Below are positions 357 to 29,274 of a stretch of DNA of 64,000 nucleotides, one piece after another. The stretch's first letter is position 1, and every line of letters starts with the position of its first letter. Below the pieces are notes generated by a model. It was given only the letters and a program-made list of their open reading frames with translations. It ran no database searches and was not told where the DNA came from. The position numbers and the translations under genes were made by a program. Source of the DNA: Okamejei kenojei. Its lineage: Eukaryota. Location: positions 23,870,001 through 23,934,000 of the forward strand of contig CM069159.1 of assembly GCA_035221665.1 (NCBI GenBank). Direction: 5' to 3'.

Positions 357-488
357 CTCGTTGAATCCTGACTTTGGGTGGGCTGGCAGCACAGTAAACG
401 GCCAAAGCGATGAGAAGTGTGGCGACAAGGTCTCCAATCACAAGCCCCGCCATGGTCCCTGAATCAACTTCCACACAATTCCGACAAG
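357..488 (-). CDS. CD3 gamma/delta-like unit A, transmembrane exon
   Basis: 132-nt phase 1/1 exon (ttttcag|...|gtagga) encoding (A)CRNCVEVDSGTMAGLVIGDLVATLLIALAVYCAASPPKVRIQR. Has the CxxCxE motif and an acidic TM residue typical of CD3 gamma/delta. ITAM exons would lie left of the window. Confidence 0.9.
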
Positions 489-542
489 CTGAAAAAAGGA
501 TTGAACAGAGTAGATGAGAGATTAAACAGAAGTCTAAATCTA

Positions 543-1365
543 AGGGCGGTATGGTGGAGCAGCCATAGAGTTGCTGCTTTACAGCGCTAGAGAACCGGGT
601 TCGATCCTCTCCACGGGTGCTGTCTGTATGGAGTTTGTACATTCCAAGGTTAATTCCCGGGATGGCGGGACTGTCATATGCTGAGAGAATGGAGCAGCTG
701 GGCTTGTACACTCTGGAGTTTAGAAGGATGAGAGGTTCTCTCATTGAAACATATAAAATTGTTAAGGGCTTGAACACGCTAGAGGCAGGAAACATGTTCC
801 CGATGTTGGGGGAGTCCAGAACCAGGGCCACAGTTTAAGAATAAGGAGTAAGCCATTTAGAATGGAGACGAGGAAACACTTTTTCTCACAGAGAGTGGTG
901 AGTCTGTGGAATTCTCTGCCTCAGAGGGCAGTGAAGGCAGGTTTTCTGGATGCTTTCAAGAGAGAGCTAGATAGCGCTCTTAAAAATAGCGAAGTCAGGG
1001 GATATGGGGAGAAGGCAGGAACGGGGTACTGATTGGGGATGGTCAGCCATGATCACATTGAATGGTGGTGCTGGCTCGAAGGGCCAAATGGCCTACTCCT
1101 GCACCTATTGTCTATTGTCTATTGCCTTTTGTCTATTCTCCCCATGACCGCGTGGGTTATCTCCGGGTGCTCCGGTTTCTTCCCACACTCTAAAGACGTA
1201 CAGGTTTGTAGTAGGTTAAGTGGCTTTGGCAAATGTGCATAGGATAGTGTGTATAGGATACACACTATACTGGTGTGTGGGATAATGCTAGTGTACGGGG
1301 ATCGCTGGTCGGCGTGGACTCAGTGGGATGAAGGGCCTGTTTCCACGCTGTATCTCTAAACTAAA
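543..1365 (+). mobile_element. HE1-like tRNA-derived SINE interrupted by a CR1/HER1 LINE 3' fragment (about 645-1133)
   Basis: tRNA A/B-box head (ggttcgatcc). The SINE body is split at gtacATTC...ATTCtcccatgacc around a CR1 tail (LGLYTLEFRRMRGSLIETYKI) ending in (ctattgt)n. Confidence 0.85.
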
Positions 1366-1489
1366 CTCTCTTTACTCTTCAAAACATATGTTAAACCAGT
1401 GAAAAAGAATGGATGCAACAACAAGCTGAAGGTGAATCACTACATTCTCTCCTTGTCCCTCGTAGGTGCAGAACCTCACCAAGGCACCC

Positions 1490-2235
1490 AGAACATGTTG
1501 ACAACAATTGGTAAAAAGAGGACCCTTAACGGCATTGATGTACAGAGGGATCGTGAAATTCAAGTCCAGAGTTTGCTGAAAGTAGTAACGTGAGTAGATA
1601 GAGTGTTAAAGAACGCGTATGTTATGCTTGCCTTCATCAGTCAGTGCATTGAGTCGAAGAGTCAGGAAGTCATGTTGCAGCTTCAGATAACTTTGGTTAG
1701 GCCGCATTTGGAGCATTATGTTCAATTCTAGTCGCACCATTACAGGAAGGATGTGGGGGATTTGGATGCGATGCACAGAGGTTAGCAGAATGCTGTCTGG
1801 ATTAGAGGTTATCAACTATAAGGAGAGGTTAGACAAACTTGCGTTGTCTTTTCTGGAGCTTTGGCAGCTGAGGGGAGACCTGATGGAAGGTTATAAAAGT
1901 GCGAGAGGCATTGATAGGGCAGACAGTAAGGCTCTTTTTTCCCAGCAATGAGATGTTAAACAATAGAGAGCTTTAAGGTTAGAGAGGTAAACTTTAAAGG
2001 AGATGTGCAGACAGGTTTTTTTACACACAGAACGATAGGTACCTGGAACACACTGCCAGGGTGGGAGTGGAAATAGATATGAAAGTGGCACTAAAGAGGC
2101 TTTAATATGGGCAGATGGAAATGCAGGGAATGTAGGAATATGGAGCAGGCACATTTAATGTGGCACCATGTTGGGCACAGACGCTGCGGGCCAAAGGGCC
2201 TGTTCTTGTGCTGTACCGTTCCACGTTCTATGTTC
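1490..2235 (+). mobile_element. Degenerate CR1 LINE 3' fragment
   Basis: Decayed LVRPHLE / LRGDLMEGYK RT C-terminus followed by the CR1 3' UTR. Confidence 0.75.
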
Positions 2236-3206
2236 TTCATTCGAGGTTCTTGACCATCATGGAGGAAATTGGAGGTTAATCCTTGGCTGACTGTGACACT
2301 GAGGTGCTGTGCAACTCACTGTTGTATGCCACCTCGCTCTTACCCAGCTTGAGCTCGGCTAATTCAACACATTGGACAAAATCTGGAACATTTATCATGA
2401 GTTTCATCTGTCAATGCCCAAGGGGAAGAAGAAGTGGTGATTTTATCTGTAGAAGGGTCTCGCCCCAGAACGTCACCCATTCCTTCTCGCCAGAGATTAA
2501 ATCAGCATCTGCAGTTCCTTCCAACACAAACAAGCCTTTTAGTGTCAGTATGACTAACAGCGTTATTGCTTGTGAAGTTTGCCTCATACAAATGGTTTGT
2601 GGTCTGATTAGATAGTTTCTACACAGACACAGCACAATCCCTGACGGGCTAACTGGTTCAAAAATATTGCTGTCATTAATAGCATTGAATTCAGTAGCGG
2701 TCAGTTATGCCTAACGCACAGCTGTGTCTGGACCGCATTGTGAGCTGAGTACGTTTTAGATAGTAGGTGCAGGAGGAGGCCATTCGACCCTTATTCATTG
2801 TAATCATGGTTTCGTCCGCTATCACATATCTCTTGACACTAAGAGCTCTATCCAACTCTTATTCTTATCTTCCAGGAAGCTTCCAGAAAGTTCCTGGCCC
2901 GTAATGTCACTTACCCAATCCTTCAGAGATGCTGCCTGACCTACTGAGTTACCCCAGCACTTCGGGTTTATTTTGTAAACCAGCATCCTGTGACCAAGTT
3001 TCTGTTTCTAAGGGGTATAAATGAACTAGGTGGGTTTTTATAACAACCCAGTGGCTTCAAGCTCATCGCTTTAATAGTGTTTGTTTTCTTAATCTATAGT
3101 TTTTAATTTTAGAAATGTTCTCATGTACATGATAAATGATTTTCATAAATGAGTCTCATGTAAATTCCTGTACTCCCGTGGTTTGATAGTCTAGGCTTCT
3201 ATGTTA

Positions 3207-3515
3207 AGGGCCTGTCCCACTGTACGAGGTAATTCAAGAACTCTACCGAGTTTTAAAAAAAAAATCAAACTCGTGGTAAGCACGTAGAATGTACGTAGCG
3301 GGTACGTTGGAGCTCGGGACATCACTTAGCGGCTCGTAATGCTAATGGCAGATACTCGGGAAATGCGGTAAGTTCGTGAAGATTTTTCAACATGTTGAAA
3401 AATGTCCACGAGAGCCCCGAGTACCTACGAGCGGCTATTACCGTAATTCTCCGAGTCTGAATTAGGGGAAACTCAGGTGAACTCTTGAATTACCTCGTAC
3501 AATGGGACAGGCTCT
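3207..3515. mobile_element. PIF/Harbinger-type MITE
   Basis: About 33-bp TIRs AGGGCCTGTCCCACTGTACGAGGTAATTCAAGA / TCTTGAATTACCTCGTACAATGGGACAGGCTCT; 3-bp TSD TTA at 3204-3206 and 3516-3518. Confidence 0.85.
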
Positions 3516-3574
3516 TTAGCAGTCAGGTAGCATGACCACCTTGTGGCAGACACTGTCGAAAGTCAGAAGAGATC

Positions 3575-3850
3575 AGCACAGCGGTGCAGTGGAAGAGGTG
3601 CTGCCTTACAACGCCAGAGACCTGGGTTCGAATCTGACTACGGGGGCTGTCTGTACGGAGTTTGTACATTCTCCCTGTGACCGTGTGGGTTTTCTCCAGG
3701 TGTTCCGGTTTCCTCCCACACTCCAAAGACGTACAGGTTTGTAGGTTAATTGGCTTCTGTAAATTGTCCCTGGTGTGTAGGGTTGAACTAGGGTGATCGT
3801 TGGTCGGCGCGAACTCGTTTCCACGCTGTATCTCTGAACTAAACGAAACT
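3575..3850 (+). mobile_element. HE1-like SINE
   Basis: tRNA head, gagtttgtacattctccctgtgacc core, (ctaaa)n tail. Confidence 0.85.
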
Positions 3851-3876
3851 AAAAAAATTTGTAATGTGTAACTTAC

Positions 3877-4056
3877 CTTTTATGAAGACAAAGGTAGAAT
3901 CTGAGGAACCAGAGCAGCCGTATTTCCCTGTGTCCGCATCAGTCCGTATTGTTCGTGAGGAGGAGGACGTTTCCTTGACATCGTCGCGGTAATTGATTGT
4001 TACATTCGCATTGCTACCACACTGGAGTTGGAGAGCTGATCCACTGGGTATGATCT
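3877..4056 (-). CDS. CD3 gamma/delta-like unit A, Ig-domain exon
   Basis: 180-nt phase 1/1 exon (ctttcttag|...|gtaagt): (K)IIPSGSALQLQCGSNANVTINYRDDVKETSSSSRTIRTDADTGKYGCSGSSDSTFVFIK. Two Cys plus DxGxYxC; splices in frame to the TM exon. Confidence 0.85.
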
Positions 4057-4309
4057 CTAAGAAAGGACAGAGTGAGTTTCATCTCTACAGCACCTTTCAT
4101 CACCTCAAGGAGCCTCAAAGCGCAGCACACTGCCAATGTGGTCACTGTCTTAATGTAGGAAACACAGTGACTAACGTGCCAACAATTATTTCTCTGGGCT
4201 CTGGTTTCTCATTCCTTTTCCACAAGTAATCAACCTCTCTGCCAACCTCCTCCCTCCTCACCCACCCTGCACAGGACCCAGCCTGAGACTGATCATCAAA
4301 TCGGCAAGT

Positions 4310-4680
4310 GTAAGGGGTTGGACAGGCTAGATGCAGGAAGATTGTTCCCGATGTTGGGGAAGTCCAGGACAAGGGGTCACAGCTTAAGGATAAGGGGGAA
4401 ATCCTTTAAGACCGAGATGAGAAAGACTTTTTTCACACAGAGAGTGGTGAGTCTCTGGAACTCTCTGCCACAGAGGGTAGTTGAGGCCAGTTCATTGGCT
4501 ATATTTAAGAGTGAGTTGGATGTGGCCCTTGTGGCTAAGGGGATCAGAGGGTATGGAGAGAAGGCAGGTACGGGATACTGAGTTGGATGATCAGCCATGA
4601 TCATATTGAATGGCGGTGCAGGCTCGAAGGGCTGAATGGCCTACTCCTGCACCTAATTTCTATGTTTCTATGTTTCTATG
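4310..4680 (+). mobile_element. Young CR1/HER1 LINE 3' end
   Basis: LDAGRLFPMLGKSRTRGHSLRIRG...FFTQRVVSLWNSLP; (ctatgttt)n tail. Confidence 0.88.
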
Positions 4681-5290
4681 TAAGAGCAATGGCACAACAG
4701 GTGATCTGAAACGCAAGGCCATAAGATGCAATCATTGTCCGTGTGCTTCAAGGCTGGAAGAAATTCAAGAGATTTAAATCTAAAGGGGAGCTGAACAACT
4801 CTTTGCTTCATGAGCTCTACCCATGCTCCATCCATCACAGTGGTAGGAATCCTACTAATGGAATGGGTTTTTGAACCCACTGATGCCATTGATTCATAGT
4901 CCACAGTTATAGTCAGTTCAATACATCTTCCCTTATTCTGTACAAATAACTTTTGGATCAGGAAGTGTTTGTGAAATATCCAACCACATTTGTACACTAA
5001 TCCCCAATCGCATTTCCATTTGGGTATTTGTACCTCCGTGCTAAAGGACATTATTGATGCCCATTTAATGATCCACTGATCTTGATGGGTGGCAATCAGT
5101 CTAATGCTTGTGGAAAGGATTAACTCCTTGTTCAGCTTTATCACTCAAACTCTTAAGAGTGTAAATAATCTATACTCTGCCATGTAATTATGAAAACATT
5201 GTTTCTGGTCCCTGTTGAAAGCAAGTTTAGCTCGAATAGTATCTCCTCAAAATCTAAGCGGCTCTTTATGATACTGAAAATATCACTTAC

Positions 5291-5311
5291 TTATCTGTGC
5301 CTCGCCGATCC
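5291..5311 (-). CDS. CD3 gamma/delta-like unit A, 21-nt mini-exon
   Basis: tattttcag|GG ATC GGC GAG GCA CAG ATA A|gtaagt = (G)IGEAQI(K). Same size and phase as the unit B mini-exon. Confidence 0.75.
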   Translation of the reverse strand, partial: GSARHR

Positions 5312-5402
5312 CTGAAAATAACAGAAATAGAAAATGAGTCACGGGTTTCATGGGTCATGGGTCATAGTTCACAACCTTGAGTGAATAGCATATACTTTAC
5401 AC

Positions 5403-13622: not shown

Positions 13623-13685
13623 TTATATTTTCAGGCGTGGAGCAAGCTGGCTGTATTCAGAGCTCCCTCTACGATCCCGGAGATC
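13623..13685 (-). CDS. CD3 gamma/delta-like unit B, last coding exon (second half of ITAM)
   Basis: tattttctag|DLRDRRGSSEYSQLAPRLKI*; completes the ITAM YQDL-x8-YSQL. Confidence 0.88.
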   Translation of the reverse strand, partial: DLRDRRGSSEYSQLAPRLKI

Positions 13686-15758
13686 CTAGAAAATACCAAG
13701 ACAGTATTAACATCCAAATAATAAAGGGGGGGTACACAAAATGCTGGAGAAACTCAGCGGGTGCAGCAGCATCTATGGAGCGAAGGAGATAGGTAACGTT
13801 TCGGGCCAAAACCCTTCTTCAGACAGGATTAATAATCCAAATAATAAATATGTGACTACCTACTGCCTTAATCCTCCCATGTGTCAGGCAAGGAAACCCC
13901 GGTTGCCCCTTGCAGTTGTGGTTGCCACTTCAGGAGGAGGTTGTGAAGGCATGCGAGGGGCGGCGGAAAGGAATTCTGAGGACGTGCTCGTTGTCAGTCA
14001 TGTCCTGGCTGGGCCCGGCTTGTTCTCTTTGGAACAAGGGGATCGGAGGGAGATCCAGAACAAGGGCAACTGAGGGTGATCCAGAACAAGGGAGATTTGG
14101 GTGGCAGGCAAGGGGAGTGTTGGGTGGCAGTGGCTCCTCAAGGGATATGCGCATTAGTCAGAGTGATTGAGCAGTCGTGCTGGATTTTTGACACATTATA
14201 AATATAAAAGAGCTGGAAAGAATCAACAGGAGCTTCTCTGAAGGGAGATGAATAACTATAGAATAAGGGTGACAATTGGTCAATTAGCGGAGGGACTAAG
14301 GGTTGATGAAAACTCTTCACCCGAAAGACAGTGATGGGGCAAGTGGGGAAGAGTCTAGGATTTGCTGTCTGAAAGAGTAAAGGAGAGGGAAACTCTCATG
14401 GAAGCCGGGAGGCACCTGGATGAATCCTTGAAGAATCATAGCTTATAAAGCCAATGACCAAGAGCTGGAAAGTAGTTTTAATCAAAGTGAAGTTAGACAT
14501 AAATGGTGAAGAAACTCTGATCAGTCTGAAGAAGGGCTTGACCTGAAACGTCACCTATTCCTTCGCTCCATAGATGCTGCCTCACCCACTGAGTTTCTCC
14601 AGCATTTTTGTCTACCTTAGATTTTTTCCAGCATCTGCAGTTCTTTTGTAAACATTTAATCAAAATGAATTTGCTTTTGGTTGGCATGACAAATCACAAG
14701 CCGATTACAGCCCTTTTTCTGCTATAAATCTTGATGCTTCCTTAATTTCCCTCTTTCTACCATATCTTATTCACTGCATGGGATCTGGATTATGAAATTA
14801 CCCAGTATGAAATCACACTCCCAGCACTTTGCACTGAGATATCTATATTTCTCCCATCCCAGAGCAGGATAGATAAAATTATCTCCTTCAGGAAGGACAG
14901 TTACCATGTCCATCCCTGTACATCTCTTGTGTAAGGAGGAACAGCAGATGCTGGTTTAAACCGAAGACAGACACAAAAAGCTGGAGTAACTCAGCGGGAC
15001 AGGCAGCATCTCCGGAGAGAAGGAATGGGTGACGTTTCGGGTCGAGAACTTCTGAGTTACTCCAGCTTTTTGTGTCTATCTCCTCTACATGTCTTTATGG
15101 ACACTCTCGACAGAGGTCTAAGACCAGGTATCCTCTTCCCACTTCAACCAATAGAGCATGTTGTAAACCCGCAGTCTGCTGGTTTTGTGGAGATATCCAG
15201 TGTGTGCTTGACAAATATTTGAAGCTTTTGCCAATATTGAGGCACATGAGGCAGATACTATAACAACCGGTAGATAGATAGGAAAGGTTTACAGGGACAG
15301 CGGCCAAACTCAGGGAGGTACAACCAGTGTAGATGGGGCATCTTGGTCAACATGGGCAAGTTGAGCTGAAGGACCTGTTTCTGTGCTGTATGCCTCCTGC
15401 AGATCACTTGGCATACCCTGGATTGGCTCCGAGGGTATATCAAGTCATCCTTTCTCAGCCATTAAGAGAGCAAAACATTGTTCTCAACTGTTAGCTTACG
15501 TGATTTGGTTTCTCCTATTTAGTTCCCTGTAACCTAATCTCTCGCATACTCCCATCAACACCCCCGCTGACTTTTGTACCTCTTGCCAACACCAGGGCAA
15601 TTTACATGAAACTGCAACACCCGGGGGAAACTCACTTGGTTGCAAACTCCACACATTCATTTGTGTGATGCTCCACATTAATAACTTGATCAAAGTCCAA
15701 AACCCACTCAAACTCAGTGAAGGCAATACTCTAGTTGATAGCTGTTGACTATCCTTAC

Positions 15759-15805
15759 CTGATACAGATCATTGTTATGGGGAACAAGGTGCTGCTCATC
15801 AGAAG
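15759..15805 (-). CDS. CD3 gamma/delta-like unit B, cytoplasmic exon (DxxxLL-like motif, first ITAM Tyr)
   Basis: 47-nt exon cttttcttccag|(A)SDEQHLVPHNNDLYQ|gtaagg, resembling CD3 gamma ASDKQTLLPNDQLYQ. Confidence 0.9.
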
Positions 15806-16139
15806 CTGGAAGAAAAGTACAAGAAAAGGAATAAGAAACTTGGAATTATCTAAGGCACAACCAATACCATTTCTATAACGGTTAGGCTTAGGTATAGCAT
15901 TGTCATATGTACCAAGTTACAGAGAAAAGCTTTGTTTTGCATGATATCCATACAGATCGGATAAACCATACATAAATCAAGTCGAGCTCAAGTACAATAG
16001 ATGGAGAAAAAGGGAAAACACAGAGTGAAGAATATAGTTCCCAGCATTGTGGCAGATCAGTTCCATTGACAAAAGTCTAATGTCCTCAATAGGCTAGCAA
16101 TGAATCGGACAACACCCTAACTTATGGAAGGCCTGTTCA

Positions 16140-16880
16140 GATAACAAAGGGGAAGGAGCTGCTGAGACATGACAAATTTCTTCAGTCTCTTCAGGAAGTA
16201 AAGATATTGCTGAGCCTTCTGAGCATCGATGTGCTTGGTCCGTGAAAGATCATTGGTAATATTAATGCCAAGGAACTTAAAATTCTCAACCATTTACACT
16301 GCCACACCATTGATGGCTGATTGGAGCATGTACTCAACTATGCTTCCTGAAGTTAATAACTCGCTCCTTTGTCTTGCTGACATTCAGGGAGTAGTTTTTG
16401 TCCTGAAACCATATCCCTAAGTTCTGCATCTCCTTCCTGTACTCAGACAGTCTCATCATTGTGTGTGAGTCGGCCCACCACGGTGCAACTCTTCAGATGG
16501 AATTAGCACCAAGTTTAGCCATACAGTTGGGAGAGTATGGGGAGTATAGTAAGGCACTGAGAATGCATCCTTGTGTGGCTCCATATTGAGAATTATTGTG
16601 GAGGTCTAATTATTGTCTTCTATCCTCACTGATGGGGATTCCTAGATCCAGGATTTTGGAGATGAGTTTGGATAGGATTATGGTGTTGAAGGAAGAGCTA
16701 TAGTCGATACTTAGGAGTCTAACATAGTTCGTGTTATCTAAATGTTCCAGAGATTTGTTTAGGGCCAGGTAGATAGACCTGTTGCAACAGTCAAGGCTGG
16801 CTGGGAGGCTGGAGTTAATATGTGCCATCATCAGTCTATCAAAGCACTTCATGATGGTGGATGTCTGAGCCACTGGACGA
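16140..16880 (-). mobile_element. Degenerate Rex1/Babar-like LINE RT fragment
   Basis: [16 protein letters not shown]...[17 protein letters not shown], with indels. Confidence 0.75.
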
Positions 16881-17054
16881 TTGTCCAGCAATCTAAAATT
16901 CGCTTCCCCAAAATGTTTTGGTGTCTGGAGGTTAATTGAACCTCTCACAAGAGATCTTTTATTTTCCTAAGGGCAGCTCAACCTTCTGAACCTTCTGAAT
17001 GTTGTCGTCGGCAGGGCAGTCTGCATATCGCCAACTTTGACAATTTTACATTTT

Positions 17055-17262
17055 TTATCAAGCCAATTAATCAAGCCAATTAACCTACATGTCTGTATGT
17101 CTTTGCAGTGTGGGAGGAAACCGAAGTTCTTGGAGAAAACCCATGCAGATCACGGGGAGAAAGTACAAACTCCATACAGACAGCACCTGTAGTCGGGATC
17201 GAACCCGGGTCTCTGGCGCTGCATTTTGCTGGAAGGCAGCAACTCTACCGCTTTGCCACCGT
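17055..17262 (-). mobile_element. HE1-like SINE
   Basis: Reverse-complement tRNA head and SINE core. Confidence 0.8.
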
Positions 17263-17525
17263 GACTGCACAGTGTCCAATTGTCAGTATATCATGGTTCC
17301 GTTGCTTTTCAGTCAGAAAGTTGCAAATTCAAGTTCCAATGATCTCGTATGGGATCTCCAATGCCCATTGCTGGGATATGGACATGTTTGCAATGGGCCA
17401 TGAATCGACCCAACTGGCTCAAGGCCAAAAGGTTGGCCAAGTACATAATGGCCTTATAGTTAGTAGAAGCAGAGGATGAGACAATCAGTACAGGTGTGAT
17501 GAGGACTAATAAAATAAATGGTAAC

Positions 17526-17648
17526 CTTTTCCCCCCTTCGAAGATGCCACACAGTAGATCGCCAAAGCGATAAAGACAGTAGCAATGAGGTCTCCAATCA
17601 CAATTCCAGAGATCGTGTTGGCATCCAGTTTCACACAATTCCTACAAA
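17526..17648 (-). CDS. CD3 gamma/delta-like unit B, transmembrane exon (3' boundary uncertain)
   Basis: ttgttttcag|(L)CRNCVKLDANTISGIVIGDLIATVFIALAIYCVASSKGGK. The only phase-compatible donor is the weak AAG|gttacc; otherwise it reads through to TAG at 17506-17508. Confidence 0.85.
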
Positions 17649-18008
17649 CTGAAAACAAAGGTAGGACAAAAACATATCAAAAATGTATTTTAGATTTAAC
17701 ACAATATGATTTTTTAAATATCTATTCCTGTTTTGTGCACTCATTCTGGTGCTGCAGCTGACCACCTTCTTATGTTCAGCCAGTGCTGAATTGGCGAACA
17801 TAGCCCTGATATTCAAATTCTACTTCTGTCTCGGACAATGGTAGTCCACCACCTCTTTTGTTCCCAGCCCAATTTACTAATAGGTTCCAATGAGGAACTC
17901 AGGGTCAGGCAAGCCAGGGATAGCAATGTAACAAAGAGCAACACTAACATCATGCCCGACTCGAGTTGTCACATCGCTTCAAGTGTTACATAGAAAAGAT
18001 CAACTTAC

Positions 18009-18200
18009 GTTTGACAAACACAAAAGCAGTCGATCTCTTTTGGCCAACAGTGCAGGTATATTCTCCAGTATCGGTGTCCGAGAGCTTTATCAGTTTCATA
18101 TTACCATCATGCGTTTTCCCCGCGTAGTTCACTCCGTCCTTCTCCCATTCTCCAACAATTGGACACTTCATAGTGATGCCACCAGACTCTTCCTGGATCA
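18009..18200 (-). CDS. CD3 gamma/delta-like unit B, Ig-domain exon
   Basis: 192-nt phase 1/1 exon: (V)IQEESGGITMKCPIVGEWEKDGVNYAGKTHDGNMKLIKLSDTDTGEYTCTVGQKRSTAFVFVK, with the C...W...DTGEYTC Ig signature. Confidence 0.9.
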
Positions 18201-19374
18201 CTGAGAATAAAGCACAGGAGCTGAGCAGCACTCTGACAGTGCTACTGACTGGGAGGTGTGAGCTCCCTGCTGGAATTCAAAGTCTTATTCCCAACTAGTA
18301 ATTTGCGCTCAGTTTAGCTAGTGTCAATCTTAGAACAGAATGCTGATGTTGGAAGAGAAGCCAAGAAGGGAGAGAAAAAGGAATGGATCTTCCCACATGG
18401 ATGATGCTTGGCAACGGTTTAACATGAAAAAAGCTTGCAAGTTCACATCCCGGCATAGTTTTCTGGCACCTTGACTCTCAGTCTGAAGAACTGAAACGTT
18501 CTCGACCCGAAACATCACATATTCATTTTCTGACCCACTGAGTTATCCAGTTTTTTGTGTCTAACTATAGTTTTCTGAAGGTAGACTAAAGTGCTGGAGA
18601 AACACAGCAGGTGCAGCAGCATCTATGGAGTGAAGGAAATAGGCAATGTTTCTGGCTGAAACCCTTCTTCAGACTTAGTTTTCTGGAATTGCTTGCTTAA
18701 ATTTGATGATTTATAATTGAAAGGTAATATAATCTTGAAAATAGCCAAGGTGTTGGGAAATTATAACTGGATCACTGATGTCCTTAGGGAAGAGGGAGCG
18801 GCATTAGTCATATGCCTGAGACAAGATTAGCATTTCCAGAAATGTAAACCCTGAATTCAAATTGACAAACTAAACTTTTGGACACACAGCTCTGGATTGC
18901 TCTTTGTAGTATTTTATTTGTCTTCATGATATTTTATTATTCTGCTCAGTTGCTTATCTGTTTATTCTCGACTGCTGATCTATAACCAAGATGGTGTAGT
19001 GCCAGTAATATGTTTGTGGCTGCAGGAGTCAGTACTCTAGAAGCTATCCTAAGACAACACATGTGTAAATTCATTTGCAGGATAAATTACTCTAAAAATG
19101 TGCTTATTGTGGCCTTGACAAACATAAGGGTTAGCACTACACGCTACGAATCCCAGTTGTGGAGACACTGGTATCGTTGTCTCGTTGTACGACATTGATC
19201 ATTTTTTACACTGGATTTTTAACTTAAGCATTGTGGGGTTTTTTTTAAATATATAAATTATGATGTTTTTTTGTGATTTACCATGATTTTATATATATTT
19301 ATGATATTTGAGATGCAATACATTTTTTTTTAATGTAATGTTGCCCCTTGTCTGAACCTTGAGTCTGTAATAAA

Positions 19375-19403
19375 GTTATTATTATTATTATTATTATTAT
19401 TAT
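19375..19403. repeat. (TTA)n microsatellite
   Basis: Direct reading; tail of an adjacent LINE 3' fragment. Confidence 0.9.
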
Positions 19404-19409
19404 ACTCAA

Positions 19410-19630
19410 TGTGTGGATGGAACTGCAGATGATGGTTTACACCAGCGCACGATAGACACAAAACGCTGGAGTAACTCAGCGGGACAGGCAGCATCTCAGG
19501 AGAGAAGGAATGGGTGAGGTTTCGGGTCGGGTTTCTGTCTGGAAAAGCGTCTCGACCCGAAACGTCACCCATTTCTTCTCTGCAGAGATGCTGCCTGTCC
19601 CGCTGAGTTACTCCAGCGTTTTGTGTTTAT
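19410..19630. repeat. Palindromic Penelope-LTR-like repeat
   Basis: Inverted arms ctggagtaactcagcgggacaggcagcatctc / gagatgctgcctgtcccgctgagttactccag. Confidence 0.7.
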
Positions 19631-20093
19631 ACTCTATGTGTGTTGGTAGTCGAGGAGAAACATGTAAGCAAACTATCAGGATCTCGGAAGTTTTCCTGTC
19701 TGGAAAATTGATTCACTTTCTGGGTCACATTCTTTTGCAACTTAAGTGGAGGTTCAGTGAACTGAGTGTTTAGTGCTAGGAATTATCTTTACACCTTAAT
19801 CTCTGACCGGTAAGCTCAAAGCAATTGTAAAGGGAAGAGGCAAACAAAGTGAAATCAAAGAAATAGCAGAGATCTGGGCAGGGAGTCACCCTAACAGGGT
19901 TACTGCAAAGGTGGAGTAAGAAATGATCCACTTGCTCTCTTATCCATGCAATGTTTCAAAGATAAGAAAACAAGGTTTTCATTGAAAACCCAATTAAACA
20001 CTGTGGAAAATCTAACAAATCCTAACCTTCAATTTCTTGCTTTTCATAACTCAAAGTAACGTTTAACCCCAATAATAAAAATCAACAGCTTAC

Positions 20094-20114
20094 CAACCAT
20101 TTCTTGAGAAAACC
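20094..20114 (-). CDS. CD3 gamma/delta-like unit B, 21-nt mini-exon
   Basis: ctttctatttag|GG TTT TCT CAA GAA ATG GTT G|gtaagc = (G)FSQEMV(V); phase 1/1. Confidence 0.8.
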
Positions 20115-20932: not shown

Positions 20933-22614
20933 AGAGGTCAGCCAAGATCATATTGAATGGTTGACCATGCTTCTATCTGCTCATGTTCTTAACCAGGAAG
21001 TGAACTTGAAATCTGATATCCCTTCCTAGGCAGAGGTGCAGTTGATCGGTTTAGGGGCAAAAGTCAATTATAAAAATGAAAAAGGATTAATGAACAATTG
21101 GAGTGAGAACAACTTAATATCAAGGAGCAGATCTGGTGAGGATATGTCGTTGGATGTGACCAAAGTCCTTTCAGGCAATGAACAGCGCCTAGTTTCTCTC
21201 CTTTCTTGCTCTTGTGTTGTAAGAAGAGTTTTAGTTTGGCTTTTGTTTTATTTTGTTTTTAGCTTAGTTTCCCTCCTTTCTTACTCGTGATGCAAGTATA
21301 TAGATCTCAATTCAAACTTTACCTTTATTTTGACAGATATAATATGATCCTCTTACAGGCAGCTGTTTCAATGGCAAATTAGCTGCGTTGAGCCACAGAA
21401 GTTTGCAAGTATGCCCTGAAGTTAGGGGTTGCCCTGGCAACTTAAGAATCACATCCGCCAATGATAAATGATAAGCAAAGCCCTACAGCTACACATAAAA
21501 CATTCTTCAGATCTGAAATTTATTCCGTATATAATCCCTGAAGATGCAAAAATGTTACATACGGCCTATATTGTTCCGTACATTTACGCAATCATGCAGA
21601 TATGAAAGATTTAATTGTAGACAGATATGCAAGGTTACTCCAGCACTTTTTTTGAAATACACAAAGTTCTCATGGAAAAAGATCTAAAAAAATCGATCAC
21701 TGAAGATTCAGAAAAATACCATTATTCAATTAACTGCCACTTGGATTCCCTCAGCTATGATGCAAGCAAAACATAATGACTTAACAGAAAGACAATACAG
21801 TACAAGTGTTCATCTTTTGACACAGGAGATAACTTGTAATTAAAATACACCACATAACATGCAAAGACATTAAGGAACGTTCCCAGCACCAAGATGTAGC
21901 AGCCATCATTAAAAAATACATCAATTGCAAATTGTGTCCAATTTGTACAACCGGATTTGCTTCATTAAAAAAAAGTTATCTCCGGCAACTATAATACAGT
22001 GACCTGTACTAACTATGGGAGCCAGTATTTTTCAAAAGTCTGAAAATATTTGGATTAATATCATCCAGTGAGCTTTATGGTGTACCATTTCTCCTCAAGG
22101 AGTATCTGTGCAGTGCTATTAAGGGTCAGGCCTACTGCAAAGGGTCGGTTAGCACCTCTGACCAACAAACAGGGTTCTCTGTTACATGAGTTAGCATAAG
22201 ACATCTGCAAGCATAGGTGGACAGGAAATCAACACTGCCCGGGAGGAAACTGTGACAAAAGTTGAATATTTCAGATAGGAAAAGAGTTTGGGTCGGTAGT
22301 TGAGTTTGACATGTTCCCGAGCTTTCATCACAAGGCATGCCGTCAACATCCTGACCACCAAATGGGGACCTTCCTCATCTCCTGTATTATAACGACTAAA
22401 GTATTATTATAACTATTACAACTAATAGTTACAAGCCCACAAAGGAGATATCCTGTTTCTGCATGGCCAGAGCAACACGAGTCACTGTACGACTTATCAG
22501 AGGGTGCGTTCATCTCTGAAGGATCCCCATTGAATTTGTACCATAGGCATTGAGTGACCATTTGGTCCAATGCTTGGCCGAGATCATTGCATTAACAGGC
22601 CTAACAAGGGTATA

Positions 22615-22831
22615 GGTGTAGGAAAGAACTGCAGATGCTGGTTTAAATCGAAGGTAGACACAAAATGCTGGAGTAACTCAGCGGGACAGGCAGCATCTCT
22701 GGAGAGAAGGAATGGGTGATGTTTCGGGTCCAGACCCTTCCTCATACCGTCTCGACCCGAAACGTCACCCATTCCTTCTCTCCAGAGATGCTGCCTGTCC
22801 CGCTGAGTTACTCCAGCATTTTGTGTCTACC
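22615..22831. repeat. Palindromic Penelope-LTR-like repeat in the 3' flank of the piggyBac ORF
   Basis: Near-perfect inverted arms ggtagacacaaaatgctggagtaactc... / ...gagttactccagcattttgtgtctacc. Confidence 0.75.
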
Positions 22832-23061
22832 GAGTGGTCACATCGCTCAAGTCACATTTGGATCCTTCTTAGAAGTGCCTCATCCTTCGTGGCAAGTGAA
22901 ATCCAGGGAGATGTGTCACTGAATCTTGAACTCAGAGAAGGTGAACAACTGTTTTTTGAAAGTCTTGTCTGATGACATCCCCGGGATCACTGGGATATCA
23001 GTCCTGGAATGGCCAGGGCAATGGTGGAGAGGTGGCAACACACAAGCCCACTGATGTGAAG

Positions 23062-24654
23062 TTAAGGGAGAGACTGATGGTAGTGTCTAAAGCATTGGAC
23101 TCTGCACAGCGGCACTTGACAAAACTCGCACATGAAGGAGGTCTCCACTGCTCTCCCGGACGCGGTTTTGCGCTTGCACCGCGAGCACTCCCGGCACACT
23201 TTCTTGCGCCCCTCAATCTTCACCATGTTGTGTGCTCTGGCGTTGCTGAAGCCCGCCTGGTACCTGGTTTCCGCCGACGAGGCCAGCCTGCCCTTCCTGC
23301 ACCCTCCCGCAGAGTAATCCCCACGCAGCATCTTGGCCAGCGCCGTCCTGAAGTTGAGGTGGTCATAGCGGCTGGGGAGCGGCGGGTCGTGAGATGACCT
23401 CTTGAAGATAAGCCAGGCATTGACGATGGTAATGTTCAATGAGAACCACAAGAGACACCTCCACCACTTTTTGGAAGGGCGACCCACGGGGTAATAGCTC
23501 CTCATTTGATCCGAAAGGTCAACGCCGCCCATGTACTTATTATACTCGGTGACCACCTGAGGTTTGACCACCCCCGAGCTGGCAATCATCTTGGTGCCTT
23601 GATTGTTTGACAGCGTGACTACCTGTCGCTTGTCCTTCCAGATGGTCAACAACAGCGATCCCTTCTGAAAGAACCGAACGTCGCCCTGTGTCTTGAGCTT
23701 CACCCTCCTGGCTTGTGCGGGGATGCCTCTGCGGGCGAGGTGTGCGGTGCAGCAAGCCCTGGTCCCTCGCTCCTCCAGGTGCTCCAGCAGGACGGGGCTT
23801 GCGAAGAAGCGGTCAAAGTACACGTGGTGGTGGCGGTGGAAGTAGGGACGACACAGCTCCAGCACCACGTCGTGCCCGGTGCCGTGGGGCGACGCCGGCC
23901 CCCGCCGCCCCGTGTACACCTTGAAGTTCAGGCAGTAGCCCGTGACAGATTCGCACAGCATCCACACTTTCACCCCCCACTTTGTCGGCTTGGCCGGGGC
24001 GTACTGCTTGAAATACAGCCGCCCTTTGTAAGCCACCATGCCCTCGTCCACGCTCAGGTCGCGGCCCGGGCGGTAGCTTTGGCCAAAGAGGCAGCGCACC
24101 ACCTCCATCAGGCCTCGGACTTTGTACACCGGGTCGTGCCCGGGGTCCGATCTGTCCAGGGCGCCCCTGTTGTCCCGGAGATGGAGATACTGGTTTAGTT
24201 TCCAAAACCTGTCTCTGGACATGGTAGAAGAGATCCATGGGCAGCGGAGGGAGGTGTCTTGGCTCCAGTACAGGGAGATGCGAGGCAGTTGCTTGATGCC
24301 CATCATGATGTTGATGGCGAGGAAAGCCTTGACTTCCTGGGACTCTGTGGGGGTCCAAGAGGAATCCCTTTTGCCTGCTTTCTCTTGGCACTGGGCAGCG
24401 TAGCGATTGGTTTCCACGGCTATGGTGTCGAACACAGCGTGTGGCCAGAGCAACGTGAAGTAATCCAGTGGGGTGGCGGTGCCTGGGAGCTGGTGCTGGG
24501 GGCCGCTGGGTTCAGTGAAGGGCGGCACATGAATATCTTGTAGATCAGTGGTCCACTCCACACCCTGATGCCCATCCGCCTCGTTCCCGATGGACGATTC
24601 TCTCTCTCCACGTCCCATATCCTCAGAAGACCTCACACCGCTCTCAGATTCCAT
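23062..24654 (-). CDS. piggyBac transposase / PGBD4-like protein, uninterrupted (530 aa from MESESG; ORF open to ATG at 24792)
   Basis: DDD triad in LSVDEGM, VYFDRFF and MGGVDLSDQ; KQYAPAKPTKWGVKVW motif; C-terminal cysteine-rich domain CRECSRC...CEFCQVPLCRVQCFRHYH. Confidence 0.93.
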   Translation of the reverse strand: MESESGVRSSEDMGRGERESSIGNEADGHQGVEWTTDLQDIHVPPFTEPSGPQHQLPGTATPLDYFTLLWPHAVFDTIAVETNRYAAQCQEKAGKRDSSWTPTESQEVKAFLAINIMMGIKQLPRISLYWSQDTSLRCPWISSTMSRDRFWKLNQYLHLRDNRGALDRSDPGHDPVYKVRGLMEVVRCLFGQSYRPGRDLSVDEGMVAYKGRLYFKQYAPAKPTKWGVKVWMLCESVTGYCLNFKVYTGRRGPASPHGTGHDVVLELCRPYFHRHHHVYFDRFFASPVLLEHLEERGTRACCTAHLARRGIPAQARRVKLKTQGDVRFFQKGSLLLTIWKDKRQVVTLSNNQGTKMIASSGVVKPQVVTEYNKYMGGVDLSDQMRSYYPVGRPSKKWWRCLLWFSLNITIVNAWLIFKRSSHDPPLPSRYDHLNFRTALAKMLRGDYSAGGCRKGRLASSAETRYQAGFSNARAHNMVKIEGRKKVCRECSRCKRKTASGRAVETSFMCEFCQVPLCRVQCFRHYHQSLP

Positions 24655-24848
24655 TACAATTTTAAAGCAGACCGGCCAATTGGACTTTTCTTCCCCCAAA
24701 CCCCAAAACGTTTGGTTCATTGACAGAACACATGCAATGTTCGACAATACCGCGCTGTGGGGGGGAAAAGAAGGTATAGTCAAAACGCGCATTTGATCTT
24801 TTCAATGGTGCCATGCCAGTAACCAGCTTAGAGAGAGTAACCAACAAA

Positions 24849-25363
24849 ATAGAGAGAGTACAGAGGAGATTTACTAGAATGTTGCCTGGGATCCAGCAAC
24901 TATGTTTCAGAGAAAGGTTGAACAAGTTAGGTCTTTATTCTTTGGAGCGCAGAAGGTTAAGGGGGGACTTGATTGAGGTCTTTAAAATGATGAAAGGGAT
25001 AGACAGAGTTGACGTGGATAAGCTTTTCCCATTAAGGGTAGGGAAGATTCAAACAAGAGGGCATGACATGCGAATTAAGGGACGGAAGTTTAGGGGTAAC
25101 GTGAGGGGGAACTTCTTTACTCAGAGGGTGGTGGCTGTGTGGAATGAGCTTCCAGCAGAAGTGGTGGAGGCAGGATCGATTTTAACATTTAAGAGTAAAG
25201 TGGATAGGTATATGGACGGGAAGGGAATGGAGGGGTATGGTCTGAGTGCAGGTAGATGGGACTAGGGGAAAACAAATGGTCGGCACGGACTGGAAGGGCC
25301 GAGAGGGCCTGTTTCCGTGCTGTAATTGTTATATGGTTATATGGTTATATGGTTATATGGTTA
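24849..25363 (+). mobile_element. 5'-truncated CR1 LINE immediately upstream of the piggyBac ORF
   Basis: IERVQRRFTRMLPG...LGLYSLERRRLRGDLIEVFK...FFTQRVVAVWNELP; (ATATGGTT)n tail; flanked by the TSD-like ACCAACA(A/T)AA. Confidence 0.9.
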
Positions 25364-27234: not shown

Positions 27235-27420
27235 ATGGGGAAGGTGGAGAGGGGAGGTGAGGAAGGGGGGTGGTGGTAAGAGGTGAGGAAAGGAGATAAG
27301 AGGGGAGGAGAGGGGGGGGAGAGAAGTGGAATGAGAGGAGAGGATAGAAGAAGGGAGGGGTGGGGAGTGGAGAGGAGCGGGGGAGGGGGGAGGGAGGGGG
27401 AGGGAAAGGGGAGGGGTGGA
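27235..27420. repeat. Purine/G-rich low-complexity tract
   Basis: Long GA-rich run with many G-tracts. Confidence 0.85.
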
Positions 27421-28705
27421 GGTATTGCGCGTGTGCATCGGGCGGTTCTCCGGAGCATTGGAGAGCTGGAGCCCGCAGCCGGTCCCGGAGCGCCCGGCAC
27501 CGGCCGGCACGGGCCGTGTGCGCAGGGAATGGGTTAGAGACCAAGAACCGGGGAACCAGCGGCACTTAGCATTGAGTTAAAACTAAACTCTCAATTGCAA
27601 ATAGTTTAATAGCTGCAGATATTATACATATTGCAATTGACACCTGTGGCATTTGCTGTTCTTGTACAGTAAACCCGCAAGGACAAGCTGCTGGCTTGCT
27701 CTACTTTGTAAGAAATATTTTAACCCAAAGCATGTATTTTGTCAGGTAGCAACTGAAATTAAAAGACAGACCCGGGGACGCAATCCAGGTACAAGATTGA
27801 AATATGTTTGCAGTTTCTAAAATAAAATCACAATTTACAGAACATAAAAAATCATTTCTATATGCGTTGGGAAAATGTAGTTTGTGTTTTAAACCGCACA
27901 GTCTGCAAAGAAATCGGACTAACTATTGTTATCAACCTAGCGTGCATGTAGGGTTTTAAAACGTGATTAATTTATAGCTCAGACGTTTGCTGAGGTCTGG
28001 TTACTGCTTCATTCGCCCAAATTGACGATCTCACTCGTACATTTATGTCAAGGACTTGCTCCGAAAGATTTTAGTTTGCCTTTAAGCGGCCTTACATCTA
28101 TCTAGTAGCAAAAATATATCACGATGGAACCAAATACCAATCGTTTCACTTTCCAACCCTTGCATAAAACAAGGGTTTGTCCTCCTCCTTCAAAGCAAAC
28201 TCCAAATTAACGCGAAAATAGGGATTTGATCGCATTTGCTGTTGGTCCGCGCTCACCTGCCAAACCCGAGTCTACATTCAACGCGGGCACACAAAATGCT
28301 GGAGAAACTCAGCGGGTGCATTTTGTATACCCTCGATTTTCCAGCATCTGCAGTTCCTTCTTTAACACTTGTCTACATTCAACGCTATTTATATATTTTG
28401 TTACCGCTAAAGCGAATAAACAGCCTGCCTCGTTGGCCGCTATGTTAGCGTTACAATTTCCGGGCAAAGATTTATTACAAAATATATATTTGTAAATACT
28501 TGTTGTGGAGTATTGTCCGTGAATGCTGATAAGTATAATTACCAATAGTCATTTTAATAAGGATCCCATTAACATTCGGCTGTATTTGTGACGGTCCACT
28601 TACTGAAGTTAAAGCATAGCAGTTTGATATTTACTTTTAATTAATTGCAAAATCCCTCCCCCCCCCCCCCCCCCCAGAGTATAAACCTTTTGATATTGAT
28701 CTTAC

Positions 28706-28760
28706 CGAAGAGCAAGATTGTCGCGCCTATCGCGAACACGAGGTTCCTGTAAAACTGCAT
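28706..28760 (-). CDS. CD3 gamma/delta-like leader (signal peptide) exon
   Basis: 55 coding nt, MQFYRNLVFAIGATILLF(G)|gtaaga, phase 1. An acceptor (tttcctctctaaag) 11 nt upstream of the ATG implies an upstream non-coding exon. Unit B CDS totals 501 nt, in frame. Confidence 0.8.
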
Positions 28761-29274
28761 CTTTCCGATCCCTTTAGAGAGGAAACAAATCAAGATAATC
28801 CGTTTATTTTAAAGGTCTGTAATATTAAATTTCGCAGACTAATGTGATGCTCAGACTGTTACTTCTCCTGGGGTTGAGGAGGCGCTTTGTGCCGCTGAAC
28901 CCCCTTCAGATGAACAACAGGAACCGGCGAGGTGGAGACACAAGGAACTGCAAATGCTGCTTCACCCAAACCGTGAGGACTCGGCGATTCCGCGGTCCTG
29001 CAGCAGACGTCATAATGGCAGCGGCATCTGCTTTAAGGAACATTAACACTACAGTCTTGCAGTTCTCATTCTTTTGAATTTAAGGCGCGCCAGACACAGG
29101 CGTGCCGGAGTTATTCAGCGGGTCAGGCAGCATCTCTGGAGAAGTCAGGATGCTTCATGCTGCCCGATCCACTCAGTTACTCCAGCACTTTGTGTCTATC
29201 TTTGGTATGAACCAGCATCTACAGTTCTATGTTTCTACATCTCAGACACAATATTCTTGGCCTTACGGACGCCA

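Follow-up and report, generated by a model that had tools for sequence, protein, structure and literature searches.

The leader intron of a CD3γδ gene in the skate Okamejei kenojei harbors an uninterrupted piggyBac transposase reading frame on the same strand as the host gene. This arrangement raises the question of whether the frame belongs to a mobile element or to a host gene and, in the latter case, whether that gene is expressed on its own or through CD3γδ. The locus was analyzed in a window of 64,000 nucleotides (GenBank assembly GCA_035221665.1, contig CM069159.1, positions 23,870,001 to 23,934,000 of the forward strand), to which all positions below refer. The frame is best explained as an immobile, single-copy, piggyBac-derived (PGBD) host gene that cartilaginous fishes carry within a CD3γδ intron. 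The reading proposed here, with a probability of roughly 0.65, is that of a domesticated PGBD gene expressed via the CD3γδ first exon.

The PGBD reading frame and its host gene

The ORF (P0001; 23062..24654, minus strand) encodes 530 amino acids and a stop codon, without an internal stop, in a stop-to-stop frame of 23062-24801 on the same strand. Its start codon, the ATG at 24654, lies in a strong context, with G at both −3 and +4, and occupies a Met position common to the orthologues. Pfam searches detected DDE_Tnp_1_7 (E = 1.6e-86, 349/349 positions covered) and zf-Tnp_2 (E = 3.7e-8). Residues D203, D281, D379, and D382 align with D268, D346, D447, and D450 of T. ni piggyBac, as counted on the 6x67 alignment, which we take to be the catalytic residues; their codons (24046..24048, 23812..23814, and, for the last two, 23509..23520, minus strand) are invariant in 9/9 chondrichthyan rows. 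The same holds for H475, C487, C490, C509, C512, C517, C521, and H526 of the C-terminal cysteine-rich domain (CRD; residues 471-530, 23065..23244, minus strand). The fold predicted from 109 sequences has a pLDDT of 89 and matches piggyBat (9c0f) and T. ni piggyBac (6x67) best, while a model built with 12 sequences was unusable (pLDDT 44). The ORF thus combines the features of the piggyBac family, namely a DDE_Tnp_1_7 core with the DDD triad and a fourth aspartate, the CRD, and the fold. An earlier note on this DNA had described an uninterrupted frame with the triad and a Cys-rich tail, lying on the CD3 strand between the leader and mini exons, and translation, Pfam, and the 6x67 alignment agree with this description. 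The GC content at third codon positions of the ORF is 0.76, compared with 0.39-0.49 in the flanks. The protein is predicted from its sequence to bind and cut DNA; conserved aspartates are no proof of activity.

The host gene comprises exons 28760-28706, 20114-20094, 18200-18009, 17648-17526, 15805-15759, and 13685-13623, which join into an open frame of 166 amino acids whose product is 96% identical to the CD3γδ-like proteins of Amblyraja and Leucoraja. Contigs of RNA type, from three same-species runs whose RNA type was guessed and which include spliced CD3 contigs, cover 28705-28892, and one such contig joins 18009 to 17648. The leader exon (28706..28892, minus strand) starts translation at ATG 28760 and ends in a phase-1 donor after 28706. 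Downstream lies cassette A (13623..20114, minus strand), with a mini exon (20114-20094), an Ig exon (18200-18009), a TM exon (17648-17526), and ITAM exons (15805-15759 and 13685-13623). The first part of cassette B (357..5311, minus strand) follows, with mini (5311-5291), Ig (4056-3877), and TM (488-357) exons; the ITAM exons of cassette B (L012) and the whole of cassette C (L013) are located left of the window. The exon at 28706..28892 is the only free-standing leader-like exon found for the three cassettes. A scan for leaders proper to cassettes B and C (window positions 1-36000 and L012-L015) returned two candidates. One is the real leader; the other, at 5351, runs through the cassette B pyrimidine tract and is probably an artefact. 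In Hemiscyllium, isoforms X2, X3, and X4 share their first 18 residues and carry three different Ig/TM/ITAM parts; the skate leader forms an open frame with each of its three cassettes, and the best match of each product is the corresponding Hemiscyllium isoform (59.5, 45.8, and 45.8%). It appears that three CD3γδ cassettes depend on a single leader exon, with the PGBD exon as a would-be fourth.

Copy number, ends, and age of the PGBD gene

A recently active or horizontally transferred piggyBac element might be intact simply through youth, with its ends hidden by later insertions. The intact triad and CRD agree with such an origin, as do the nearest non-vertebrate relatives (approximately 50% identical), which belong to clusters with several members, as is typical of mobile elements, and the high-copy repeats in both flanks, where later insertions had already been noticed. 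The upstream insert, formerly given as CR1 at 24849-25363, is indeed a high-copy repeat (24842..25363, plus strand), located approximately 90 nt upstream of the PGBD acceptor; it is presumably a CR1-like 3′ fragment, and a Pfam search of its translation gave no match. Downstream, in the presumed 3′ UTR, a palindromic high-copy repeat (22653..22831, no strand assigned; arms 22653-22735 and 22749-22831) has further copies within the window and is not a piggyBac end.

However, youth is a very improbable explanation, and one close to refuted, given the single copy, the lack of a pair of terminal inverted repeats (TIRs), the shared locus in skate and sharks, and a tree that tracks the hosts. The DNA search of the 2.76-Gb genome yielded one PGBD match, a lower bound. 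Among at least 10 protein matches, the remaining nine are partial, 27-49% identical, and mostly interrupted by stops, and the only full-length, stop-free PF13843 among at least 11 genome matches (20 candidates scored) is the ORF in the CD3 intron. No TTAA-flanked TIR pair (13 nt, ≤3 mismatches) was found among 26 × 20 TTAA sites, whereas the control detected TIRs in 12/25 related loci; TTAA-anchored tests run at seven stringencies recovered repeats and chance matches only, as did a BLAST comparison of the upstream with the downstream flank. The locus therefore lacks the TTAA-flanked TIRs and multiple dispersed copies of a mobile piggyBac-like element, the copy counts being lower bounds, and shows the single copy, intact ORF, and absence of TIRs of a domesticated PGBD. 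The earlier note had likewise seen no TTAA-flanked TIR pair, and the genome-wide copy count that it had proposed gave one DNA match and no near-identical TIR-flanked copies.

Orthologues that retain the DDD(D) residues and the zinc finger occur in seven other named chondrichthyans and a skate-like Logan record, at 71-92% identity: 92% in the latter, 78% in Narcine, 77% in Heptranchias, 75% in Pristiophorus and Scyliorhinus torazame, 74% in Heterodontus, 72% in Hemiscyllium, and 71% in Callorhinchus; the next matches are approximately 50% identical. Six named elasmobranchs have both PGBD and CD3 records. In three sharks from three orders, the PGBD protein is RefSeq “isoform X1” of the CD3 gene, namely Hemiscyllium (PGBD XP_060702870, CD3 isoforms 871-874), S. 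torazame (XP_072342411-413, CD3 414-415), and Heptranchias (XP_067826911, CD3 914-916 and 918). The other three records (Heterodontus, Narcine, and Pristiophorus) bear separate gene labels without an isoform label; in Heterodontus, PGBD (XP_067910284) and CD3 (285) have adjacent accessions, and in Narcine the two records agree in chromosome length only. The gene model GCC37783 of Chiloscyllium punctatum continues from PGBD to the Ig exon of CD3, so that PGBD must lie upstream of this exon on the same strand. The fusion that it encodes is likely a prediction artefact: it has no signal peptide, C. punctatum also has a normal CD3 record, and in the skate the matching site ranks outside the 12 best donors of that exon. 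On protein records, an orthologous position is thus indicated by isoform labels or adjacent accessions in 4/6 species and by one fused model, and PGBD sits at CD3 in the skate and at least four sharks. In 13 other chondrichthyans in which CD3 was found, including Amblyraja and Leucoraja, no PGBD protein was among the matches listed, which may reflect an annotation gap or real loss. A metagenome scan for orthologous DNA returned 80 loci, the best at 51% identity and none at chondrichthyan level.

Protein-level proxies support purifying selection on PGBD. Its conservation exceeds that of CD3 cassette A in 6/6 pairs, and invariant sites number 203/354 in the core, 36/60 in the CRD, and 10/60 in the N-terminus. 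Neutral decay would produce an expected 7.9 stops per 23% divergence, an estimate that is biased because protein databases take only intact proteins. In the main tree (30 rows, LG+G4; distant invertebrate rows and the chimeric P0125 left out), the chondrichthyan sequences form one clade that tracks host phylogeny (chondrichthyans 100/100, batoids 99/99, galeomorphs 90/90); the Callorhinchus-basal branch has support of 64/70 here and 97 in a quick tree. The gene dates at least to the elasmobranch ancestor and probably to that of all chondrichthyans, and the chimaera-elasmobranch split is put at approximately 420 My in the part of a review that was available (PMC6238376). Their sister group consists of lamprey and hagfish sequences (98/95), and one alternative to this grouping, picked after the tree had been seen, was rejected (p-AU 0.0105); the gene may accordingly have arisen before the chondrichthyans. 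The domestication proposed earlier is accordingly supported by the single copy, the missing TIRs, and orthologues in sharks, rays, and chimaera, those in sharks lying at CD3, as the comparison across relatives suggested by the same note was meant to reveal.

Possible routes of expression

The transcript record for PGBD consists of RefSeq predicted isoforms in sharks. In the skate, no RNA record was listed for 22900-24800, and no contig of the three runs mapped to 22845-24835, which counts neither way with regard to expression. RefSeq isoforms of one gene generally share a splice site or coding sequence, and from these labels we infer a PGBD-CD3 shared exon in sharks. The putative acceptor in the skate comprises a branch-point-like motif, a pyrimidine tract, and AG (24755..24783, minus strand), with an exon start at 24754, as previously proposed. 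On a simple pyrimidine score it reaches 18, the highest of 499 AG sites in the intron (28705-20115), whereas the five real CD3 acceptors score 12.5-16. Acceptor-like sites scoring ≥15 were also seen in 6/10 TIR-flanked relatives, a count without a chance baseline. The CD3γδ promoter likely drives transcription of the PGBD exon, which would act as an alternative last exon. Quite probably, four acceptors then compete for the leader donor at 28706, PGBD first and cassettes A, B, and C after it.

Because the CD3 leader ends in phase 1 and the acceptor is phase 2 for the transposase, a leader-24754 splice meets its first stop 12 codons past the junction and would give a 30-codon uORF out of frame with the transposase; the phase arithmetic of the earlier note, with its short uORF and no fusion, was correct. 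The 12 codons and stop occupy 24717..24754 (minus strand), and the stop overlaps the in-frame PGBD ATG at 24720 (AUGA). This upstream Met also occurs in P0002 and is missing from the shark records, and a conserved stop-start mechanism was rejected on that ground. If the leader makes this choice of acceptor, ribosomes would with good probability reach ATG 24720 or 24654 by re-initiation or continued scanning; with the splice out of frame, free transposase by re-initiation is likely and a fusion is not. The uORF stop would lie in the last exon, and the transcript should therefore escape junction-dependent decay. Three AATAAA hexamers on the minus strand (21519-21524, 21324-21329, and 21247-21252) are candidate polyA signals. 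Two of them had been pointed out before; they exist, but at 3 observed versus 1.5 expected and 1.5-1.8 kb beyond the stop, the hexamers are at chance level and provide no evidence of polyadenylation.

The same intron leaves room for a separate first exon. Between the leader and PGBD lies a CpG-rich patch (27301..27600, no strand assigned; GC 0.64, CpG o/e 0.76), a candidate independent promoter, and the unused donors at 28257 and 26660 outscore the leader donor. A domesticated PGBD might therefore be merely nested here, with its own non-coding first exon (e.g., within 27301-27600) and expression mainly in tissues other than T cells (gonad or brain, for instance); minor splicing would then account for its RefSeq link to CD3. 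That PGBD has a gene label of its own in Heterodontus, Narcine, and Pristiophorus agrees with this, as does the out-of-frame leader splice, and the identical PGBD protein encoded by the three S. torazame transcripts implies that these differ in their UTRs. Should the cyclostome sequences be orthologous, the PGBD gene would also predate CD3, since cyclostomes, to our knowledge, have none. On the other hand, PGBD is filed as a CD3-gene isoform in three shark orders, several alternative acceptors already appear to use the leader, and a strong acceptor has been retained directly downstream of the leader donor; independent expression is thus considered rather unlikely.

A further possibility is that the main role of the exon is in cis: as a premature terminal exon, it would draw off leader transcripts and tune CD3γδ output, with the protein secondary or restricted to DNA binding. 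This would fit the position of the intron's strongest acceptor as the first after the leader, and the out-of-frame splice. However, a cis trap does not need a frame of 530 codons, and the protein outdoes CD3 in conservation in every pair, with four aspartates and eight CRD residues invariant. Such a role is improbable; of the two consequences envisaged earlier, re-initiation is the likely one, while attenuation of CD3 as the main function fails to explain the protein conservation.

Under expression through the CD3γδ leader, it is somewhat probable, by analogy, that selection acts on nuclease- or transposase-like chemistry, beyond DNA binding, at genomic sites in CD3-expressing cells. With such expression, the T cells of cartilaginous fishes would own a host protein for which DNA binding and cleavage are predicted, and a second transposase would be linked to T cells. 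A more far-reaching and improbable reading regards the gene as a second vertebrate-ancestral domesticated piggyBac besides PGBD5 and, in cartilaginous fishes, as the first of four alternative cassettes behind the CD3γδ leader and an active non-RAG DDE endonuclease that T cells co-express with their receptor complex. In that event, lamprey, hagfish, chimaera, sharks, and rays would have retained the gene while bony vertebrates lost it, and the endonuclease may join shark-specific antigen-receptor or genome rearrangement.

Comparison with known systems

No description of a chondrichthyan PGBD in a CD3 intron was found in a search of literature outside subscription journals. The available text of one survey names PGBD1-5, KOBUTA, and NeoPGBD as domesticated vertebrate piggyBacs and no cartilaginous-fish gene (Bouallègue et al., 2017, PMC5381638), although its supplement of 101 PGBD-like sequences might list the Callorhinchus or lamprey protein. 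The present gene is hundreds of My old, has kept every catalytic and zinc-finger residue, and is located in a core gene of T-cell-receptor signalling in the oldest lineage with RAG-based immunity.

For the host gene, the part of a review that was available reports duplicated CD3γδ in the small-spotted catshark (Pettinello et al., 2017, via PMC6795676). Both cases show more than one CD3 copy in cartilaginous fish, but the skate has three cassettes apparently behind one leader, plus the PGBD exon; the original study may already note part of this layout, which would change the counting of shark CD3 copies.

The closest architectural parallel, drawn already in the earlier note, is PGBD3 in intron 5 of CSB/ERCC6 (Newman et al., 2008, PMC2268245). 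Insofar as the portions available describe it, PGBD3 is likewise a piggyBac ORF without introns that sits in sense within an intron of its host gene, brings its own 3′ acceptor, and can serve as an alternative terminal exon. The parallel fails in reading frame, ends, and polyA position: PGBD3 makes an in-frame fusion protein, retains TTAA and 13-nt TIRs, and is polyadenylated approximately 130 nt past its stop, whereas the skate splice is out of frame, TIRs are missing, and candidate polyA sites lie at least 1.5 kb away. Moreover, the acceptor-Met distance is 7 nt in PGBD3 and 100 nt (to the conserved Met) in the skate, PGBD3 has an Asn in the triad (PMC5381638, table) that is intact in the skate, and PGBD3 is approximately 43 My old in primates, whereas the skate gene spans chondrichthyans. 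If expressed from the CD3 first exon, the skate exon trap would yield a free enzyme, in contrast to the PGBD3 fusion.

PGBD4 (primates), KOBUTA (Xenopus), and NeoPGBD (teleosts) are, in the same survey text, single-copy, intronless domesticated ORFs under purifying selection and resemble the skate gene in the former respects, but their host ranges differ, and for NeoPGBD (649-682 aa) neither a splice signal nor a neighbouring gene is described (Bouallègue et al., 2017, PMC5381638). RefSeq calls the shark proteins “PGBD4-like,” which looks like an automatic name, because no named bony-vertebrate protein (PGBD4, KOBUTA, and NeoPGBD included) was among the top 120 matches of either protein search. 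That text also states that most domesticated PGBDs have not conserved the DDD triad, and its retention here points to use.

PGBD5 and the ciliate PiggyMac/TPB2 are ancient domesticated piggyBac proteins reported, in the sources as far as available, to act on host DNA, and they are the models for the chemistry proposed above. PGBD5 has several introns and no C-terminal zinc finger (PMC5381638, in part), whereas the skate gene is intronless and keeps the CRD; the chondrichthyan gene differs from both in being tied to an immune-receptor gene. The closest solved structures, piggyBat 9c0f and T. ni piggyBac 6x67 (E = 4.6e-57 and 1.2e-38; TM 0.66-0.68), belong to mobile elements with TIRs and are only 26-28% identical to the skate protein. 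Its CRD follows the pattern of one His and then seven Cys/His that is described, in the accessible text, for PiggyBat and Pgm (PMC8086355).

Structure and copy number of the PGBD gene

The piggyBac-derived gene (PGBD) in the leader-to-mini-exon intron of skate CD3γδ has a minus-strand frame that an ORF scan finds open at 23062-24801 and that would yield, from the ATG at 24654, a protein of 530 aa, as expected from the uninterrupted transposase ORF of the earlier note. The protein matches the Pfam profile DDE_Tnp_1_7 end to end and carries a zf-Tnp_2 finger, and D203/D281/D379/D382 align to D268/D346/D447/D450 of T. ni piggyBac, which bears out the full DDD triad and Cys-rich tail. The nearest solved structures are piggyBat and T. 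ni piggyBac, and a structure model (pLDDT 89; input of 109 homologues) resembles both in fold.

PGBD is no mobile element: a DNA search of the 2.76-Gb genome gives a single match for the ORF, and of the 11 matches to the family no other has a full-length piggyBac domain without stops. Of the 10 protein matches, the other nine are incomplete, with 27-49% identity; all three counts are lower bounds. Many near-identical TIR-flanked copies, which would have spoken for mobility, were not found. A scripted search detected no TTAA-flanked TIR pair anywhere in the intron, and the same script recovered TIRs at 12 of 25 related loci picked from 80. Other piggyBac-like remnants lie in the genome (G000) at C5:24177785, C25:22382810, C1:25764395, C9:7363602 and C13:19391606, those on C25 and C5 with open frames of 169-356 aa. 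A palindromic element of ~180 nt and very high copy number occupies 19452-19630 and 22653-22831; partial copies occur elsewhere, and the element is common in the window.

Orthologues and age of the insertion

The best PGBD matches form one cluster each for Heptranchias, Narcine, Pristiophorus, Scyliorhinus torazame, Heterodontus, Hemiscyllium (including Chiloscyllium punctatum), Callorhinchus and a skate-like record, below which identity falls to ~50%. Orthologues, which the earlier note had proposed to seek across skates, rays and sharks, are thus found in batoids, sharks and Callorhinchus. In the smaller tree they constitute one clade (support 100/100) that mirrors host grouping (batoids, 99/99; galeomorph sharks, 90/90); Callorhinchus is basal in a larger quick tree (97), and the smaller tree leaves this branch without resolution. 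PGBD is better conserved than cassette A of CD3 in all six species pairs, by percent identity (78 vs 71, 77 vs 66, 75 vs 68, 75 vs 61, 74 vs 64 and 72 vs 56%). No change is seen in any of the 9 alignment rows at the four aspartates or at eight Cys/His of the cysteine-rich domain (CRD), and conserved positions cluster in the core and the CRD. GC3 reaches 0.76 in the ORF, whereas the flanks have 0.39-0.49. Two protein searches returned no PGBD for 13 further chondrichthyans with CD3 matches (Stegostoma, Rhincodon, Cetorhinus, Carcharodon, Mustelus, S. canicula, C. plagiosum, two Mobula, Hypanus, Hemitrygon, Amblyraja and Leucoraja). For Amblyraja and Leucoraja, both very close to the Okamejei kenojei genome, an annotation gap is likely; in some of the 13 the gene may have been lost.

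In RefSeq, the PGBD of Hemiscyllium, S. torazame and Heptranchias is filed as "isoform X1", with CD3 isoforms as the next accessions; the Heterodontus accession adjoins that of CD3, and the Narcine PGBD and CD3 records agree in chromosome length only. In C. punctatum, one gene model continues from PGBD to the Ig exon of CD3 and thereby settles the order and strand of the two. As PGBD thus lies at CD3 in the skate and in sharks, its position is at least as old as the shark-ray ancestor. RefSeq isoforms of one gene have a splice site or CDS in common, so that PGBD is inferred to use an exon shared with CD3 in sharks.

A lamprey PGBD and two hagfish PGBDs (P0044, P0023 and P0128), all with intact triads, form a clade (100/97) that is sister to the chondrichthyan PGBDs (98/95) in the smaller tree, again like the host relationships; the one alternative topology tested, picked after the tree had been seen, was rejected (p-AU 0.0105). 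A vertebrate-ancestral gene is possible, and separate invasions by related elements are equally possible. No named bony-vertebrate protein occurs among the best 120 matches of either search, most of which are nameless. Lampreys and hagfishes undergo programmed DNA elimination.

Elsewhere in the window, exons at 34731-34842, 36615-36751 and 46500-46679 (+) belong to a divergently transcribed spliced gene with a contig joint; the one exon searched against Pfam has no significant match. Minus-strand exons at 57841-59024 with SPxR-type repeats, also without a Pfam match, presumably resemble BUD13 and might serve as a synteny anchor.

The CD3γδ host gene and the route to PGBD protein

Six exons around PGBD give an open 166-aa CD3γδ frame, 96% identical to the Amblyraja and Leucoraja proteins, which marks the window as skate DNA. 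One same-species contig joins the Ig and TM exons of cassette A exactly, and two cover the leader exon, reaching 28879 and 28892. PGBD lies in sense between the leader (donor after 28706) and the mini exon (20114), as originally described. A weak donor at 17526 (-; score -1.8) in the cassette A TM exon is nevertheless demanded by the frame.

The locus holds three tandem cassettes: A (20114-13623) and B (5311-357) on the minus strand of the window, B continuing leftward in L012 (7789-7116), and C farther left (L013, 7942-525). Each begins with a 21-nt phase-1 mini exon. A leader scan found one free-standing leader-like exon (28760-28706, -). Joined to it, every cassette reads through without a stop and encodes two YxxL/I motifs; each product best matches its counterpart among Hemiscyllium isoforms X2, X3 and X4, which have a common 18-residue leader and three different Ig-TM-ITAM parts. 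Three divergent cassettes apparently use one leader, an arrangement noteworthy in its own right. If this donor also serves PGBD, the PGBD acceptor is the first of four. An RNA-type contig stops exactly at the leader donor (28705); branching to more than one acceptor would account for this, and so would mere low coverage. An ATG 40 nt before the cassette B mini exon opens a frame (5351-5291, -) that crosses the pyrimidine tract and encodes a hydrophobic 20-mer, possibly a leader of cassette B's own, possibly a coincidence.

The acceptor at 24754, rightly singled out as strong, ranks first of the 499 AG sites of the intron by a simple score and exceeds all five real CD3 acceptors. The AATAAA signals noted downstream exist; their frequency is no higher than chance. 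The top donor-like site of the PGBD exon (21323, -) immediately follows the second AATAAA, and the exon might at times splice onward from it to the mini exon. Co-transcription with CD3γδ is likely; the main rival is that an independent promoter drives PGBD, a reading that two strong unused donors and the CpG-rich stretch at 27301-27600 would allow. With the leader spliced to 24754, the calculated frame stops after 18 + 12 codons, so that no leader-PGBD fusion arises, as predicted. The stop of this 30-codon uORF overlaps an in-frame PGBD ATG at 24720, and 63 nt farther on, in strong start context, comes the conserved Met (24654). Re-initiation and leaky scanning are general routes of translation beyond a short uORF, and PGBD protein would most readily be made by one of them.

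Function and comparison with known systems

Single copy, without TIRs and conserved across cartilaginous fishes, PGBD is most probably a real domesticated piggyBac gene, nested in CD3γδ. No description of it was found in the literature searched, and the main text of a survey of domesticated piggyBacs lacks the words "shark" and "Callorhinchus" (PMC5381638); the shark proteins are already in RefSeq as automatic "PGBD4-like" predictions. As domesticated PGBDs keep the triad only exceptionally, according to that survey (PMC5381638), its retention makes selection on the chemistry somewhat likelier (about 0.6) than selection on binding alone. PGBD may be hypothesized to cut DNA in T cells. The likeness to PGBD3 in CSB proposed in the earlier note holds in part: the skate gene has neither the in-frame fusion nor the nearby polyA of PGBD3, but the layout of an intronic ORF in sense is similar in both (PMC2268245).
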